Assembly (NCBI GenBank): GCA_938002255.1
Contig: CALLAL010000016.1
Coordinates: forward strand, 75,038-139,037
Origin: an uncultured bacterium
GTDB taxonomy: Bacteria; Desulfobacterota; BSN033; UBA1163
Length of the DNA stretch: 64,000 nucleotides
Reading direction: 5' to 3'
Under the pieces are notes generated by a model, which did not search any database, had not been told where the DNA came from, and saw only the letters and a list, made by a program, of their open reading frames with translations. Both the position numbers and the translations under genes were made by a program. Shown in pieces: positions 5,547-46,551 of the stretch. Position 1 is the stretch's first letter. The number at the start of each line of letters is the position of its first letter.

Positions 5547-5620
5547 CACGCATCCTTCATTTTCTTGTAGACAAACCTTATCACAATTTTTATTTTTGGT
5601 CAATCCTTTATGAAAACATT

Positions 5621-5845
5621 GTAACCCGTCAGTGATGGGGTGTGTTCGGTTTAAAAGGGTTGGAACGTTCCCCCTCCAAAACCTTGAATAGCGGTTATAA
5701 AAGGTTATCCTCATCGAAGGCCTCATGCCCTTTGAATCGGATTTTTTTAAATCAGATTGGGTCGTTTGACGAACAGAGGTTTCGCTTCAAGGTTTTTCCG
5801 AAGCAACCTCCCAACCCTTTTTTATTTCTTTAACTGAGGGGTTAC
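5621..5845 (+). mobile_element. MITE-like non-coding repeat, copy 1 (225 bp, 13-bp TIRs, 8-bp TSD AAAACATT)
   Basis: Left end GTAACCCGTCAGT and right end ACTGAGGGGTTAC are inverted repeats. Identical 8-mers AAAACATT flank it at 5613-5620 and 5846-5853. About 90% identical to copies at 14282-14507 and 29867-30091. Confidence 0.7.
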
Positions 5846-5963
5846 AAAACATTAAAAACTACTTCTCATCCTCTCATATCTATGTCATTCATCTTGATTC
5901 GATCTAATCATTGATCGGAGATTGACGGTTGTTTTAAAAAATGATACATAAGAATCAAACAAG

Positions 5964-6016
<53 letters not shown>

Positions 6017-6038
<22 letters not shown>

Positions 6039-14281: not shown

Positions 14282-14507
14282 GTAACCCCTCAGTGATGGG
14301 GTGTTTTCGGTTTAAAAGGGTTGGAACGTTCCCCCTCCAAAACCTTGAATAGCGGTTATAAAAGGTTACCCCCATCGGGGCCCTCATGCCCTTTGAATCG
14401 GATTTTTTTGAATCAGATGTGGTCGTTTTGACGAACAGAGGTTTCGCTTCAAGGTTTTTCCGAAGCAACCTCCCAACCCTTTTTCATTTCTTTAATTGAG
14501 GGGTTAG
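14282..14507 (+). mobile_element. MITE-like non-coding repeat, copy 2 (degenerate right TIR, no clear TSD)
   Basis: GTAACCCCTCAGT ... AATTGAGGGGTTAG. Collinear with copies 1 and 3 over about 225 bp. ORF-track ORF 14271..14468 lies inside it and is judged spurious. Confidence 0.65.
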
Positions 14508-14570
14508 ACGTAAAATCATTTCTTCCTTGACGAAAACCCTCTTTTTTTATAGAGTCGGACAGGGAAAGAG

Positions 14571-29067: not shown

Positions 29068-29835
29068 TCATTTTTTCCCTTTCACGCCTTCGCCAGTCAT
29101 GGGGACGAAGAGGACCGGGATGACATCCGTCGTCTCTATCTTCCCCGATCGTTTAACAATCTTTTTCAATTCCTGGGAGTATGTTCCTACGGGAACGACG
29201 AGCCGCCCGCCTTCTTTGAGTTGATCGAGGAGGGGCTCGGGAATGTGGTCGGGCGCACAGGTAACCATAATGGCATCAAAAGGAGCATGTTCAGGCCATC
29301 CTAAATACCCGTCGCCCGCCTTCACCTGAATGTTTTGGTAGCCCAGCTCCATGAGCAGGGTTTTAGCTGTGGAGGCGAGCGTTTCAATGATCTCGATGGT
29401 ATAAACCTCTTTGGCCAACTCTGCAAGAATGGCAGCCTGGTATCCTGACCCCGTGCCAATCTCCAACACCCTCTCTTTTCCTTTCAGGTCTAATAACTCC
29501 GTCATCAGGGCCACGATGTATGGCTGGGAGATGGTCTGCCCTTCTCCGATGGGAAGCGGTTGGTCCGAATAGGCTTGGGATTCGTAAGATTTGGGGACGA
29601 AGCGATGGCGTTCAACCTTCAGCATGGCGGAAAGGACCCGTTCATCCTTAATTCCCCGGCTTTTGATCTGCGTTTCGACCATCTTTTGGCGCATGGCTTG
29701 GAAGTCCTTTTCGGAATCCGATGAGGGATGCCATCTCACTCCATCACAGTTGGCTGTAAGAGCCAACAGGAGCATCCCGATAAGAATGATCAAGACTTTC
29801 CCCTTCATTAAAAAAAGGTTATCATAATTTTGCAA
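29068..29835 (-). CDS. pcm: Protein-L-isoaspartate O-methyltransferase with N-terminal signal peptide
   Basis: PIMT motifs VLEIGTGSGYQAAILAEL and GGRLVVPVG. N-terminal hydrophobic leader (KVLIILIGMLLLALTANC) absent from cytoplasmic Pcm. Confidence 0.8.
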   Translation of the reverse strand: MQNYDNLFLMKGKVLIILIGMLLLALTANCDGVRWHPSSDSEKDFQAMRQKMVETQIKSRGIKDERVLSAMLKVERHRFVPKSYESQAYSDQPLPIGEGQTISQPYIVALMTELLDLKGKERVLEIGTGSGYQAAILAELAKEVYTIEIIETLASTAKTLLMELGYQNIQVKAGDGYLGWPEHAPFDAIMVTCAPDHIPEPLLDQLKEGGRLVVPVGTYSQELKKIVKRSGKIETTDVIPVLFVPMTGEGVKGKK

Positions 29836-29866
29836 GACCTGTCAATTTTTGAACTTGAGTTGACAG

Positions 29867-30091
29867 TAATCCCTCAGTTATGGGGTGTTTTCGGTTTTAA
29901 AGGGTTGGAACGTTACCCCTCCAAAACCTTGAATAGCGGTTATAAAAGGTTACCCTCATCGGGGTCCTCAGGCCCTTTGAATCGGATTTTTTTGAATCAG
30001 ATTGGGTCGTTTTGACAAACAGAGGTTTCGCTTCAAGGTTTTTCCGAGGCAACCTCCCAACCCTTTTTTATTTCTTTAACTGAGGGGTTAC
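29867..30091 (+). mobile_element. MITE-like non-coding repeat, copy 3 (9-bp TSD AGTTGACAG)
   Basis: TAATCCCTCAGT ... ACTGAGGGGTTAC with AGTTGACAG direct repeats at 29858-29866 and 30092-30100. Lies between divergent pcm and TPR genes. ORF-track ORF 29830..30015 inside it is judged spurious. Confidence 0.7.
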
Positions 30092-30137
30092 AGTTGACAG
30101 GGCTTTAATCTTTCTGATAATTTTTTATAAAGACAGG

Positions 30138-33100
30138 ATGGTTATGTTCAAGAGATTAGCGAAACTGATCAGCCTCTTTCTCCTTCTTTCGGTCGCTCTC
30201 TCTTTGACGACCCTTGAAAGCCAGGATCAACCCCGAGGCCGAATGCGATCGCAGGAAATTATTTTTTTAGGAAGAGACGAGACCAAATGGATCGAAGGGC
30301 GTGACATTCCCCTTCCCCTTATCGTCGCTCAAGGAGTCAAACAGGAAGCCACGTTAGAGATGTTTGACCTTAGGGAAGATCAGATCGGTCCCATGAGGAA
30401 AATGAGTCCTTCAACCACCCAACCCGGTTGTGCTTATACCAGTCGCCTCACAGGGGGGATGACGAGCAGTGATAAAGCTTTTTATGAGAGAGGAAGATAC
30501 TCCTACTTACAGGGAGAGTACGAGAAAGCCATTCAACTCTTTCGGCGTTTGATAGAGGAACACCCCGAGAGCCTCATGAAAGGTTCAACTCTCTATTGGA
30601 TGGGAGAGGCAAAGTACCAGCTGGGAAAAATCGAGGAGGCTTTTACCGATTTTAAAAGAGTGATAGATGAATTTCCCGAAAATGAATTTATTTCCTACGC
30701 TCTCTATTCTTGCGGTTGGATCCAGCTCAGACGGGGATTGTTTGAGGAAGGAAGCCGATTTTTTCGAAGGGCGTACGATAAAAATCCTGCCCTTTCTATT
30801 GCCCAGTCTTCCCTCTTCTGGTCAGGGTATTGTCTTTATCACCTGGGACGATATGCAGAAGCGATGAGGGAGATCGAGACTCACCTCCAACACTATCCAG
30901 AAGGCATCTGGAGGCCCGAAGCAGAATATCTCTTAGGAGTGACCACCTTTAGACTCCAGAAATACGAAGAGGCGGCGGCACTTTTTAGAAACTTCTTAAG
31001 ACGCTATCCTCGCCATCCTCTGGAAGAGAGTGGCCGTTATGCTCTGGCATGGTGCCAGGTCTCCCTTGGACACTATGCAGAGGGGCGGAAAACATTCGAA
31101 GAGATCCTTCTCCATTTCCCCGCCACCCCTTTGTCCGATCCTATCTTCTGGGGAGTGGTGAAGACGTATCTTGGGGAGAACGAGGTAGAAAAGGCAACCC
31201 AGTTCTACCAGAGATTTCTTTCCCAATTTCTCATTTCCCCATGGGCGGAGCGATGTCTTTTCGATATTGGACGATACTATTTTGACCAAAAGGAGTATTC
31301 CCTTGCTGTCGTCACGTTCAGGCAATTTCTAAAAACGTATCCAGAAAATGATCTTCAAGAATGGGTCTATTTTATGTTGGGGGAATCCCTGTTCAATCAG
31401 AAGAATTATGCCGATGCGATTGGTGCCTACCGGCAAGTCTTATGGTTGAAAAGGATGGCGCAACTTGAGGATCGGGTTTATGGGAGGTTAGGATATTGCC
31501 ATTTTCTATTGAAACAATATGATGAGGCCATCGGGTATTGGGAAAGATTCCTCAGAGAATTTCCAGACCATCCCGAAAAGAATGAAATCCTTTACTGGTT
31601 GGCAGAAAGTCATCTGATTAAAGAAGATTATCGCCATGCCGTTCAATATGTGGACCGATTGAAGGACGTTCCTTCCCTTTATCCCAAAAGCCTAACGAGT
31701 TTAGGGTGGTACCATTTTCAAAAAGGAGAATGGAAGGAGGCCAATCAATATTTTCTCAAGATTTTATCTGAATTTCCAGAATACCGCTCCTCTCCTCCTC
31801 TCCCCCTTTTGATTGGTCAATGTTTTTTAAATCAGAATGATTACGGGCAGGCCAAAATTTATTTAGAACGTCTCATCCAATCCCCTGATGAAGAGGGAAA
31901 GGAAAAGGGTTTCTATCTGTTGGGATGGATTGCTTACCGGGAAGAACGGTTCGATGATGCTTTAAATTACTTCCAAACTCTACAGGCTTCTTTTCCCTCA
32001 AGTTCCTATCACGATGAAGCTCAGTATTGGATCGGCTGGTCCTATTTTCGGAAAAAGAATTTTATAAAAGCCGTTGAAGCCTTCCGTGTGGTCGTAAGGC
32101 AATTTCCCCAAAGTCCATTTGTTCCGTCTTCCCTATTGAAGATCGGTGACAGTTATTACAATGTAAAACAGTATGGGAATGCGATCCAATTCTATCAGCA
32201 GTTGATTCGAGAATACGGTAAGTCGAAGGAAGCGCCTGAAGCGGAGTATGGCATCCTCCTCTCCTATCTTCAGGAGAAGAGATACGACCTCTTTGTTAGC
32301 CGAGTGGAGGCCTTCGTCAAACGTTACCCTCAGCACTCCCTCTCGGGTCAAGCGCTCATGCAATTGGGAGATTATTTCCAGCAGTCGCGGGCTCTTGATA
32401 AAGCTCTCAAAACGTATCAAGAGGTCATCCGACTTCATCCTCATAGCCAAGGGGCAGAAGAGGCTCAATTTCGACTCGCTCTCCTTCTGAAGATGGAGAG
32501 GCGTTGGTCCGAAGCCTTAGAGGAGATGGAGCGATTTATCAAACATTACCCAAAAAGCCACCTCCTGATGGATGCCTGTTTAGAGGCAGGGGATCTCCAT
32601 CTGTTGCTTAAAGCTTATCCGAAAGCATTGGACTATTTTGATGGCGTGAGGCGAAATTCGGGAAAGCCGTTGTTCATACAGAAAAGTCTTTTAGGGATGG
32701 AAGAGGCCTATCGGGGCCTTGGCAAGTTAGAAGAGGCTGAGAAGGTGTTAAAGGAGTTGATAGACAAATTTCCTCATGATGAGTTGCGGTTCGAAGCACA
32801 TTTCAGGATCGGTCTCCTTGCTCTTTCTCAGAAGCGATTTTCCGATGCCATCCCTTCTTTTTTTGCAGCCTCGAAAAGTCCTGAAGAAAGAATCGCCAGT
32901 CAGACCCAATTTAAACTTGGAGAGGCCTATATGGGTTTAGGTCATCGAGAGACCGCGATCCTCCAGTTTTCGAAAGTTCTTTATCTCTATCCCCACCTTA
33001 CTGAATTGGGTGAAGAATCTCTTTTAAGATTAGGGACCCTCTACATGGAAACAAAAAGGTTTTCCGAAGCCAAACAGGTTTATCAAAAACTCTTAGACCG

Positions 33101-33176
33101 GACAAGCCGTGAAGATCGGAAAAGGATGGCTAAACAGATGCTCCATCAGATTCAGCAGGAGGCCACTCGTCCATGA
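30138..33176 (+). CDS. Large secreted tetratricopeptide-repeat (TPR) protein
   Basis: Signal peptide, 1012 aa. More than 15 TPR-like 34-aa repeats (recurrent W/Y-x-x-G-x-x-Y/F-x-x-x-x-Y-x-x-A patterns). Confidence 0.7.
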   Translation: MVMFKRLAKLISLFLLLSVALSLTTLESQDQPRGRMRSQEIIFLGRDETKWIEGRDIPLPLIVAQGVKQEATLEMFDLREDQIGPMRKMSPSTTQPGCAYTSRLTGGMTSSDKAFYERGRYSYLQGEYEKAIQLFRRLIEEHPESLMKGSTLYWMGEAKYQLGKIEEAFTDFKRVIDEFPENEFISYALYSCGWIQLRRGLFEEGSRFFRRAYDKNPALSIAQSSLFWSGYCLYHLGRYAEAMREIETHLQHYPEGIWRPEAEYLLGVTTFRLQKYEEAAALFRNFLRRYPRHPLEESGRYALAWCQVSLGHYAEGRKTFEEILLHFPATPLSDPIFWGVVKTYLGENEVEKATQFYQRFLSQFLISPWAERCLFDIGRYYFDQKEYSLAVVTFRQFLKTYPENDLQEWVYFMLGESLFNQKNYADAIGAYRQVLWLKRMAQLEDRVYGRLGYCHFLLKQYDEAIGYWERFLREFPDHPEKNEILYWLAESHLIKEDYRHAVQYVDRLKDVPSLYPKSLTSLGWYHFQKGEWKEANQYFLKILSEFPEYRSSPPLPLLIGQCFLNQNDYGQAKIYLERLIQSPDEEGKEKGFYLLGWIAYREERFDDALNYFQTLQASFPSSSYHDEAQYWIGWSYFRKKNFIKAVEAFRVVVRQFPQSPFVPSSLLKIGDSYYNVKQYGNAIQFYQQLIREYGKSKEAPEAEYGILLSYLQEKRYDLFVSRVEAFVKRYPQHSLSGQALMQLGDYFQQSRALDKALKTYQEVIRLHPHSQGAEEAQFRLALLLKMERRWSEALEEMERFIKHYPKSHLLMDACLEAGDLHLLLKAYPKALDYFDGVRRNSGKPLFIQKSLLGMEEAYRGLGKLEEAEKVLKELIDKFPHDELRFEAHFRIGLLALSQKRFSDAIPSFFAASKSPEERIASQTQFKLGEAYMGLGHRETAILQFSKVLYLYPHLTELGEESLLRLGTLYMETKRFSEAKQVYQKLLDRTSREDRKRMAKQMLHQIQQEATRP

Positions 33177-44537: not shown

Positions 44538-45523
44538 ACCTCATTTTTCTCACCCATTCTAGTGACCAAGGACACCGATTCCGGGTCGAGCAATATTTTC
44601 CCCTTCTCCGACACCATCAGGTGAACCCCGTATGGCAGCCCCTTCCTCCCTCCATAAAGAATCGGATATCGATTTATCAAAAGCTTCGGGAGTTTGATAT
44701 CGTCTGTATTCAGAGGCGATTACTCTCTCCTCTGGAATTTTTGTGGGTCCGAAAGAAATCGAAAAAGATTCTCTTTGATCTCGACGATGCCATCATGTAT
44801 CGTTCCCCCAGTTCCCCTTATCCCCATTCTTTTTCAAGATGGATCAAATTTAAATGGATGGTGAGGGGAAGTGACGCCGTGATTGCAGGAAATCATTTTC
44901 TTCGCGAAGAAGTCTTCAAAGCCGATCCTCATAAAAGGGTTTTTATTATTCCAACTCCAGTTGACCTCAAGGCTTATCCTCTTAAAAAAGAGGTTACCCC
45001 CTCTGCCGAAATGAACATCGGCTGGATTGGAACCAAAGGAAATTTAAGATATCTTCAAGCTCTGGAACCTGTTTTCAAAATCCTTGCCCCTCGATTCCCA
45101 AACGTAAAATTGAAAGTGGTCAGTAATGGTCTATTCGAATCCCAGTTTATTCCGACGGTGAACAAGCCCTGGGTTTTGGAGGAAGAAAACCAGGATTTAA
45201 TTTCTTTTGACATCGGTCTGATGCCTCTGGAGGATCATCTGTGGTCAAGGGGAAAATGTGGGTTGAAAATTATCCAATATCTAAGCGTGGGCCTTCCGGT
45301 GGTCTGTTCCCCTGTGGGAATGAATCGGGATATCATCAAGCATGGCGTCAATGGATTCTGGGCGGGTACCCCAACGGAATGGATGAAATATATCCAAACG
45401 CTTTTGCAGGATACTGGCTTAAGAAAAGAGATGGGACTTCGGGGGATTGAAACCGTTCAAGAAGGGTACAGTCTCGAGGTAAACTTCCATAAACTTCTGC
45501 AGGTTCTGGAGTCACTGGCTTAG
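44534..45523 (+). CDS. Glycosyltransferase (GT-B, GT4-like), paralog A
   Basis: C-terminal GLKIIQYLSVGLPVVCSPVGMNRDIIKHGVNGF. About 35-40% identical to the next gene. Confidence 0.6.
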   Translation: MNLIFLTHSSDQGHRFRVEQYFPLLRHHQVNPVWQPLPPSIKNRISIYQKLREFDIVCIQRRLLSPLEFLWVRKKSKKILFDLDDAIMYRSPSSPYPHSFSRWIKFKWMVRGSDAVIAGNHFLREEVFKADPHKRVFIIPTPVDLKAYPLKKEVTPSAEMNIGWIGTKGNLRYLQALEPVFKILAPRFPNVKLKVVSNGLFESQFIPTVNKPWVLEEENQDLISFDIGLMPLEDHLWSRGKCGLKIIQYLSVGLPVVCSPVGMNRDIIKHGVNGFWAGTPTEWMKYIQTLLQDTGLRKEMGLRGIETVQEGYSLEVNFHKLLQVLESLA

Positions 45524-45537
45524 AGGGTGTTGGTTCT

Positions 45538-46551
45538 ATGAAAGTCCTTTTTTTCATTCAGGGATTTTCCGTTGCGGCCAGCCGTTATCGAGTGCTTCAA
45601 TATCTACCCTATCTTAAATCCCGAGGCGTGGAGCCCACGGTTCAGGTTTATCCAAAAACCCTCAAGGACCATCTTCAATGGTTCAAATTGCTTCCTCAAT
45701 ATGATATTGTTTTTTTACAGAGAAAGCGGTTCAATCAACCCAGACTCGGACTTTTGCGCAGAAGGGCAAAAAAAATCATTTATGACTTCGACGATGCCGT
45801 GATGTATCGAAACTCCAAATCTGGCCAACCCATCTCTTCCTCACGCAGGAGGCGATTTGTTCAAATGATCCGGGCCTCCGATTTTGTCATTGCCGGGAAT
45901 GAATTTTTAAAGTATGAAGTTCAAGCCCTTCATCCTCGTGTGGAAGTCATTCCAACACCTATTGATATCAGCCGGTATCGGCCTAAAGCCTACCTCATCC
46001 AACCGGAACGAGTCACCTTAGGGTGGATCGGGGATCATGGATCCATTCACTATCTTGAAAAAATGAAGCCAGTCTTTAATCGGCTTGGCAAGAAATATCC
46101 CCACGTCGATCTCAAGATCGTCTGCGATATCTTTTTCGATTGCGATTCCATCAGGGTGATTAAAAAGGATTGGAAAGCAGAGGAAGAAGTCTTAGACCTT
46201 CAGAGTTTTGATATTGGGGTGATGCCTCTGGTCGATGATCCTTGGTCCTGGGGAAAATGTGGATTAAAAATTATCCAATATCAGGGGGTTGGTGTTCCGG
46301 TGGTTTGCACACCGGTCGGAATCAATAGGGATTTGGTGGAGGATGGGGTAAATGGATTTTATGCAATGACTCCGGAAGAGTGGGAGGAAAAACTTTCCTT
46401 GTTGATTGAAGATGCCTCCCTGAGGGAAAGAATGGGTCAGGAAGGGCGAAAGCGGGTCTTAAAGGGCTATACCCTTCAAGCCTGTGCCCCTAAATTGTTT
46501 TCTATTCTTCAGCGAGTTTCTGAAATGTCCGAAATGGAGAGTGTTCCTTGA
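45538..46551 (+). CDS. Glycosyltransferase (GT-B, GT4-like), paralog B
   Basis: Collinear with 44534..45523 (YRVLQYLPYL versus FRVEQYFPLL, GLKIIQYQGVGVPVVCTPVGINRDLVEDGVNGF). Confidence 0.6.
   Translation: MKVLFFIQGFSVAASRYRVLQYLPYLKSRGVEPTVQVYPKTLKDHLQWFKLLPQYDIVFLQRKRFNQPRLGLLRRRAKKIIYDFDDAVMYRNSKSGQPISSSRRRRFVQMIRASDFVIAGNEFLKYEVQALHPRVEVIPTPIDISRYRPKAYLIQPERVTLGWIGDHGSIHYLEKMKPVFNRLGKKYPHVDLKIVCDIFFDCDSIRVIKKDWKAEEEVLDLQSFDIGVMPLVDDPWSWGKCGLKIIQYQGVGVPVVCTPVGINRDLVEDGVNGFYAMTPEEWEEKLSLLIEDASLRERMGQEGRKRVLKGYTLQACAPKLFSILQRVSEMSEMESVP

Follow-up and report, generated by a model that had tools for sequence, protein, structure and literature searches.

An element between pcm and a TPR gene

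The spacer between pcm and a divergently oriented gene for a TPR-repeat protein, in the 64-kb stretch of DNA analysed here (hereafter the window), contains a short repeated element bordered by direct repeats that include a TTGACA hexamer. This raises the questions of what the element is, what fixed the point at which it landed, and how the promoters of the two genes fared. The features of the locus, with positions given in window coordinates, are as follows.

29068–29808, minus strand: pcm, encoding protein-L-isoaspartate O-methyltransferase (246 aa; PF01135, E 2e-70)
29816–29845, minus strand: predicted pcm promoter, with TTGACA at 29845->29840, 15 nt, then TGATAACCT at 29824->29816 (hexamer TAACCT at 18 bp)
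29858–29865, plus strand: left copy of the target-site duplication (TSD), AGTTGACA; its TTGACA points towards the element interior, with no -10 following
29866–30091, no strand assigned: MITE copy 3, 226 bp, non-coding, 93–94% identical to the other window copies and absent from the empty site of two relatives (L034 and L035)
29866–29880, plus strand: left terminal inverted repeat, GTAATCCCTCAGTTA; the first 22–23 nt match without difference the end of the transposase-carrying element in L030 and the contig ends of a binchicken MAG
30077–30091, minus strand: right terminal inverted repeat, GTAACCCCTCAGTTA, matching the left one at 14/15 positions
30092–30099, plus strand: right copy of the TSD, AGTTGACA, holding the -35 hexamer of the TPR gene (30094–30099)
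30094–30123, plus strand: predicted TPR promoter, with TTGACA at 30094–30099, 15 nt, then the extended -10 TGATAATTT at 30115–30123
30144–33176, plus strand: gene for the TPR-repeat protein (1010 aa); AGGA at 30135–30138 fits the start at 30144, with an alternative ATG at 30138

Relatives of this locus were obtained by searching for pcm homologues and fetching their contigs, which yielded L034, L035 and L036. The pcm genes of L034 and L035 are 92% identical to that of the window and lie in the same gene order (DivIC, TonB_C, 1010-aa TPR protein, pcm), and the pcm–TPR spacer in both is 101 bp long, carries a single CTGTCAACT and no element, and aligns base for base with the window spacer minus copy 3. 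With a single repeat and no element in these two relatives, copy 3 is a true insertion with target-site duplication. A first-pass annotation of this DNA had read the element as an inserted MITE with a real TSD and had proposed comparison with relatives lacking it as the test; the single repeat copy and missing element in L034 and L035 bear that reading out. An ENA metagenome contig that is 99.96% identical to the window likewise carries the element. Populations with the element are of the ERZ6863697 type, and the empty site is represented by SRR32929651 and ERR14790953.

The same annotation had given the duplication as 9 bp and the element as 29867–30091. The perfect repeat AGTTGACAG is indeed present at 29858–29866 and 30092–30100, but the ninth matching G (29866) doubles as the first base of the element's GTAA end, and copy 3 alone cannot separate 8 from 9 bp. 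Duplications of 8 bp are found in 5/7 complete MITEs, and they are unambiguous in copy 1 of the window (AAAACATT), L015 (TCAGATGG) and L010 (GGGTACGG), as well as in the full-length IS copies L037 (TATTTTTT), L048 (TTTATTGA) and L067 (AATTAATC). A 111-bp relative, L022, has a TSD matching at 7/8 positions, and one site split over two contigs (L050 on the left, L049 on the right) has the TSD AAAACTGC. Since the other copies give 8 bp, we take the TSD of copy 3 to be 8 bp and the element to span 29866–30091; the end at 30091 thus stands, the start moves by one base, and the ninth G belongs to the element end.

The third relative, L036 (FWPV01002417.1, 3641–4000; pcm 83% identical), has other extra DNA in the pcm–TPR spacer around the same two promoter cores. 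Between its two -35 boxes is a 31-bp hairpin piece (CACCCCTTTGCCGGGGTG) with GTCAAC repeats on either side, and its TPR promoter is followed, ahead of the TPR start, by about 250 bp that include a terminator-like hairpin. This spacer DNA matched no Rfam family. The pcm–TPR spacer seems to be a recurrent landing site.

A non-autonomous relative of IS66 elements

Copy 3 has the characteristics of a MITE: it is short (below about 600 bp) and non-coding, with terminal inverted repeats, a TSD and a matching empty site, it occurs as one of several dispersed copies, and its ends are common to transposase-carrying elements. Only open reading frames of 51 and 61 aa run through it, indicating no meaningful coding capacity, and a promoter scan found no sigma70-like promoter of its own.

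Genome and metagenome collections were scanned for the terminal 22-mer of copy 3, which sits on many elements with interiors that are unrelated between subtypes. These include MITEs of 81, 111 and about 225–230 bp, and full-length elements that share the end over 21–23 bp: a 2.3-kb element (L021, 218–2554) encoding a 518-aa DDE_Tnp_IS66 protein and a DruA-like protein, and L030 together with about 12 contig ends of one MAG, encoding a 456-aa transposase and a DUF6788 protein. The L021 and L030 transposases match PF03050 DDE_Tnp_IS66 (E 4e-34 and 1e-38) and score above the cut-off of the NCBIfam IS66 equivalog NF033517 (213 and 222 bits vs 180). An IS66-type DDE transposase is thus encoded by the full-length relatives, not by the MITE itself, and a tblastn search with IS66 transposases found no match in the 64-kb window. 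The L030 transposase likewise had no tblastn match at E 1e-30 among PLSDB plasmids.

Published IS66 inverted repeats begin GTAAGCGTCC... and GTAACCGTCC... (PMC12888890). All copies and relatives found here start with GTAA, giving GTAA...TTAC termini, as IS66 ends do. Target repeats of 8 bp, reportedly the norm of the IS66 family (Han et al. 2001), are present in copies 1 and 3 of the window, L015, L010, L022 (7/8), L037, L048, L067 and L049/L050. Because of the GTAA...TTAC ends, the 8-bp TSDs and the IS66 transposases in full-length relatives sharing the terminal 21–23 bp, copy 3 is, as judged from its sequence, an IS66-family MITE.

The canonical three-gene arrangement, with tnpA and tnpB upstream of tnpC, was not found in the relatives. 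The transposase reading frame stands alone in L037 and L048 (about 1.54 kb), is accompanied by DUF6788 in L030 and L038, and by a DruA-like reading frame in L021. As tnpA and tnpB are absent, the relatives fit the single-ORF ISBst12-like group better than the canonical three-gene group. With the single-ORF group and with IS-derived MITEs the elements share GTAA...TTAC termini, an 8-bp TSD and a DDE_Tnp_IS66/zf-IS66 transposase in full-length relatives, and like other IS-derived MITEs copy 3 is a non-coding unit reduced to the ends and present in several copies. They differ from the IS66 group in lacking tnpA and tnpB, in place of which some relatives have the DUF6788 or the DruA-like protein.

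Both accessory genes have features of their own. The 293-aa protein beside the L021 transposase matches Pfam DruA (Druantia) and weakly Mom; L021 itself lacks a TSD and has inserted next to an IS256-like transposase gene. The DUF6788 protein (L030, 2386–2775; L038, 1028–1381) is small, has a CxxC...CxxC-type motif and is encoded just upstream of the transposase; in several subtypes its reading frame overlaps the transposase start. The protein is a candidate for an accessory or targeting role, yet it is absent from the 1.54-kb L037 and L048, both of which obey the 19-nt spacing described below.

The terminal 22-mer was also found in MAGs labelled 'Chromatiaceae' and 'Deltaproteobacteria'. A lone end lies upstream of gcvH in a Nitrospira-labelled MAG (L006, 1432–1453), where TTGACA is at offset 35. 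The match in L010 (5607–5687), from a Phycisphaerae MAG, proved not to be a chance one, being a real 81-bp MITE with a perfect TSD. A further match, L013, falls within GC-rich coding sequence, probably arose by chance and was left out. The range of labels implies wide horizontal spread of the element group, or binning errors. In L042 (about 1000–1030), L045 (121–257) and L046 (1797–1964), family ends follow one another head to tail, or are nested, at distances of a few bases, for example ...CCCATTAC|atttcaat|GTAAGGGG...; insertion of one element beside another, or the formation of tandem arrays, may account for this.

Two predicted divergent promoters

The hexamers flanking copy 3 resemble sigma70-type promoters, with -35 and -10 elements spaced 16–18 bp apart, conservation in relatives and a gene downstream on each side; this is a consensus prediction, from which we infer that they are working promoters. 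The -10 element of the TPR gene could be GATAAT at 16 bp (found by the scanning tool, 11/12 consensus matches) or TAATTT at 18 bp, preceded by TG. The latter had been pointed out in the first-pass annotation and is present at the distance given there; the two appear equally plausible. L034, L035 and L036, representing three lineages, all have the same TPR promoter hexamers, and the pcm core promoter is invariant in all four sequences (window, L034, L035 and L036). The predicted pcm -10 is 7 nt from the ATG at 29808, and no Shine-Dalgarno sequence is present (TTTTTTTAATG, window 29806–29830), on which grounds the pcm mRNA is probably leaderless. pcm, the TPR gene and the gene to the left of copy 1 all have predicted promoters with an extended -10 that reads TGATAAnnT.

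Before the insertion, the pcm and TPR -35 boxes lay back to back on opposite strands, 14 bp apart. In the right TSD copy the TPR -35 is still correctly spaced from its -10, the left copy points into the element, and the DNA upstream of about -38 of the TPR promoter is element. On the pcm side the element begins at about -58 relative to the ATG, so that the promoter is unaltered from about -57 inward. The predicted TPR core promoter therefore appears intact by way of the right TSD copy, and expression of both genes would be expected to survive the insertion. The earlier suggestion that the duplicated target contains a TTGACA -35 hexamer is correct, the hexamer being that of the TPR gene. The further proposal, that the box was regenerated on both sides and promoters were so kept for both genes, holds for one side. 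The TPR box was rebuilt by the right copy, and its distance to the -10 is conserved in three lineages. Neither TSD copy can serve pcm, because both TTGACA hexamers lie on the plus strand and pcm on the minus strand; the left copy has no -10, and pcm has a minus-strand box of its own.

Two other ways of reading the flanking motifs were set aside. A promoter firing into the element would depend on TGTCAA on the plus strand, which is a poor hexamer with poor spacing to any -10, whereas the outward reading gives the consensus TTGACA followed by a -10. Nor is the promoter part of the element: the empty sites have it too, and in the window it is located beyond the TSD.

Two further copies in the window

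Three dispersed copies of the element, about 93–94% identical, occur in the 64 kb (5621–5845, 14282–14507 and 29866–30091), and all three end in the inverted repeats GTAAYCCCTCAGT.../...ACTGAGGGGTTAC and form a long hairpin when folded. The two copies other than copy 3 are:

5621–5845, no strand assigned: MITE copy 1, with the 8-bp TSD AAAACATT at 5613–5620 and 5846–5853
14282–14507, no strand assigned: MITE copy 2, with no recognisable TSD and a mutated right end (GTTAG)

To the left of copy 1, reading outward, TTGACC (5603->5598) follows after 17 nt, then TGATAAGGT and then a minus-strand gene. Copy 2 has promoter-like sites on both sides: on the left TTGATT (14263->14258), 17 nt and TATAAT, at offset 18; on the right TTGACG (14527–14532), 17 nt and TAGAGT, at offset 19, the right-hand site being conserved in L069 and L070. 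The two promoters flanking copy 2 may reflect symmetric targeting. With offsets counted outward from the element end, the window copies therefore have -35-like hexamers at 17 (copy 1), 19 (copy 2) and 20 (copy 3), and genes read outward from them. All three thus conform to the family spacing described below, although copies 1 and 3 are off its most frequent value.

A decayed element of about 95 bp (GTCATCCCTCA...TGAGGGATCC) occupies the copy 2 site in the relative L069 (2755–3000), by which copy 2 is, on comparison of the two sequences, an old insertion common to both lineages. A tRNA-Thr (CGT) gene (5964–6038) lies 118 bp to the right of copy 1. The window also contains a 153-nt direct repeat (45205–45357 and 46206–46358; 76% identity, spaced 1001 nt), which has no relation to the MITE and probably reflects duplication of part of a gene.

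A fixed distance between element ends and -35-like hexamers

More insertion sites were gathered through transposase homologues, which are very abundant in metagenomes (about 4000 matches), and the contigs that carry them, giving a set of 80 unique (de-duplicated) outward flanks from many samples and several element subtypes. One flank (L062, about 2120–2206) was excluded since a Nextera adapter (CTGTCTCTTATACACATCT) follows directly on the element end, an assembly artefact in the public record. Scored with a sigma70 weight matrix, 26 flanks reach at least 6 bits at offset 19, against 0–4 at each other offset from 0 to 39, and scores average +0.7 bits at this offset vs about -3 to -9 elsewhere. 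The trinucleotide TTG occurs at offset 19 in 25/80 flanks against a mean of about 1.9 elsewhere (p 4e-21), with counts of 2 each at offsets 17, 18 and 20, and 0 at 21. Beyond this TTG, TAnnnT follows at 16–18 nt in 15/25 cases vs 6% in the background (p 8e-13); in flanks without TTG, the -10 signal was not significant (5 vs 2.9 expected, p 0.22). Positions outside the site-selection criterion are informative as well, being T-rich at offsets 12–15 and C at 18.

All nine complete insertions with a TSD (9/9) have a -35-like site at 17–20 nt on one side. Further evidence comes from copies of an identical transposase (P0129) in unrelated flanks: downstream of the transposase gene, 7/8 readable flanks fit the 19-nt spacing, with a -35-like hexamer exactly 19 nt outside the end and a -10-like hexamer 16–17 nt later. 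The exception, L040, has its box at offset 11. Examples of P0129 flanks, and one of an element with a different transposase, are:

L038 (P0129): TTGACA-16-TACACT
L039 (P0129): TTGCCG-17-TATCAT
L041 (P0129): TTGCCA-17-TATCAT
L043 (P0129): ATGACT-17-TATACT
L045 (P0129): TTGTGT-17-TATTAT
L048 (P0227): TTGACT-18-TATATT

In 12 full-length elements this site is found outside the end that follows the transposase gene, and in 4 outside the opposite end; in 8 loci a co-directional gene begins about 100–200 nt past the transposase stop. About a third of insertions, and the majority of P0167-subtype flanks, have no motif at offset 19. A large number of the IS flanks were taken from short metagenome contigs, the two sides of which may stem from different copies (TSDs are missing in L060–L066); such mixing cannot create a positional signal. 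The possibility that the target mimics the element ends, through a TTGAC-like word inside the inverted repeats at that distance, was rejected, as inspection by eye found no such word common to the subtypes.

Searches of the open-access literature turned up no description of IS66 elements that prefer a fixed distance from -35 hexamers, and no comparable targeting by other bacterial DDE insertion sequences. To our knowledge, a fixed 19-nt spacing from -35 boxes has thus not been described before for IS66 elements. We infer that the elements acquire this spacing through the choice of target when they integrate, and not through selection afterwards.

Target choice and its alternatives

We propose, with good confidence in the combined reading, that an IS66-type MITE was placed by the 19-nt spacing next to the pcm -35 box and that the TPR box was rebuilt by the TSD. 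Copy 3 would be a non-autonomous MITE of the single-ORF IS66 subgroup, with a transposase acting in trans that recognises the GTAAYCCCTCAGTTATGGGG ends. Insertion into the 101-bp pcm–TPR spacer would proceed by cuts staggered by 8 bp, and repair of the gaps would duplicate AGTTGACA. The group as a whole would integrate at a fixed distance, such that a sigma70-type -35 hexamer starts 19 (+/-1–2) nt outside the element end; the hexamer would thus lie 11 nt beyond the TSD and the integration at roughly -55, counted from the transcription start. In the case of copy 3, the pcm -35 box would have guided integration; it starts 20 nt from the left end and so not at the modal 19. Because the TPR -35 box is only 14 bp from the pcm box, it would have fallen inside the 8-bp target, and the spacing suggests that the pcm box, not the TPR box, fixed the landing point. 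The transposition complex may measure about 11 bp from the staggered cuts to a TTGAC-like word, since a one-base peak cannot come from selection alone.

That last point bears directly on the explanation by survivorship, in which insertion is random and only harmless insertions just upstream of core promoters persist. In its favour, purging of intragenic insertions is to be expected, the motif is missing at about a third of sites, and the -10 enrichment appears only where a -35-like TTG is present, as it should if surviving TTGAC sites are mostly intergenic. Selection would nevertheless tolerate any position upstream of about -45 and so cannot produce a peak one base wide, and L015, with TTGACT at offset 19 at the 3' end of a converging gene and no convincing -10, looks sequence-guided and not functionally selected; we therefore consider survivorship as the whole explanation improbable. 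A transposase that targets the -35 hexamer itself, with the duplicated TTGACA preserving both divergent promoters, would account for the hexamer in the TSD of copy 3 and for the rebuilding of the TPR promoter by the right copy. When the flanks were scanned for the pentamer, however, TTGAC occurred within 8 bp of an element end in copy 3 only, and in the other copies the hexamer lies 11 nt outside the TSD. Both TSD copies moreover read on the plus strand, the left one has no -10 at 16–18 nt, and pcm's own minus-strand box is conserved in the empty sites, all of which makes targeting of the hexamer very improbable.

It might also be asked whether the 226-bp unit is a transposon at all, rather than a repeated structured RNA gene or a regulatory module of promoter regions. 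Copy 3 yields a long hairpin (DNA fold, -37 kcal/mol, z -3.6) with a terminator-like hairpin at its left end, and the unit always lies in intergenic promoter regions, as such a module might. Against this stand the perfect 8-bp TSDs, the empty site that is otherwise identical in sequence, and ends held in common with transposase-carrying elements while interiors are unrelated between subtypes. Rfam, searched with the whole window at the gathering threshold and with 29780–30180 at E up to 1, gave only tRNA-Thr and one noise match, and no family for copy 3; the unit also lies upstream of both flanking promoters and so is probably not transcribed. We regard an RNA gene or module as extremely improbable.

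Within the proposal of guided integration next to the pcm -35 box, the target may be recognised by direct readout of the DNA or by docking on promoter-bound RNA polymerase. The sequence evidence leans to direct readout, and the -10 association would then stem from the intergenic position of the surviving sites: flanks without TTG show no independent -10 enrichment, and L015 has TTGACT with no good -10. Selection against intragenic insertions surely contributes to the -10 enrichment. That the IS66 subgroup and its MITEs dock on the RNA polymerase holoenzyme, through sigma70 region 4 or the alpha C-terminal domain, and integrate at its upstream edge near -55, is a tentative idea that we think unlikely.

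Comparison with other systems and implications

Integration at fixed positions by promoters is known from the Ty3 and Tf1 retrotransposons, which are directed to Pol III or Pol II promoters by transcription-factor tethering. The elements described here would resemble them in inserting at a defined distance upstream of the transcription start and in sparing coding sequence, a safe haven. Ty3 and Tf1 are eukaryotic retroelements with an integrase and known tethering factors, whereas the present group is a bacterial DDE transposon. Tn7 at attTn7, and IS4321 and IS5075 in the inverted repeats of Tn21-type transposons, insert at a fixed distance from a recognised sequence, and with these the IS66 group here shares a motif that lies beside, not within, the duplicated target at fixed spacing. 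They use one unique or rare site, in contrast to the short degenerate motif of the IS66 group, which is offered by hundreds of promoters per genome. The Correia elements of Neisseria duplicate TA and can bring promoter boxes of their own. Copy 3 is like these and other promoter-associated MITEs in being short, hairpin-forming and intergenic next to genes, and in being able to alter promoter context, and unlike Correia elements in that the promoters lie in the target DNA and not in the MITE.

The copy 3 locus shows an element sitting between two predicted, divergent core promoters without destroying either: one, that of pcm, lies outside the target, and the other, that of the TPR gene, was rebuilt by target duplication. 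On a wider scale, a DDE transposon family with an apparent 19-nt rule is abundant in environmental metagenomes. The rule would explain the pile-up of MITEs in promoter regions and predicts a systematic rewiring upstream of promoters, affecting UP elements and activator sites. If docking on the holoenzyme were true, it would be a bacterial counterpart of the promoter tethering of Ty3 and Tf1, and the elements would be natural markers of active promoters in uncultured bacteria and possibly a tool for promoter-proximal insertion. If integration is guided, the 19-nt rule would constitute a safe-haven targeting mechanism in bacteria.
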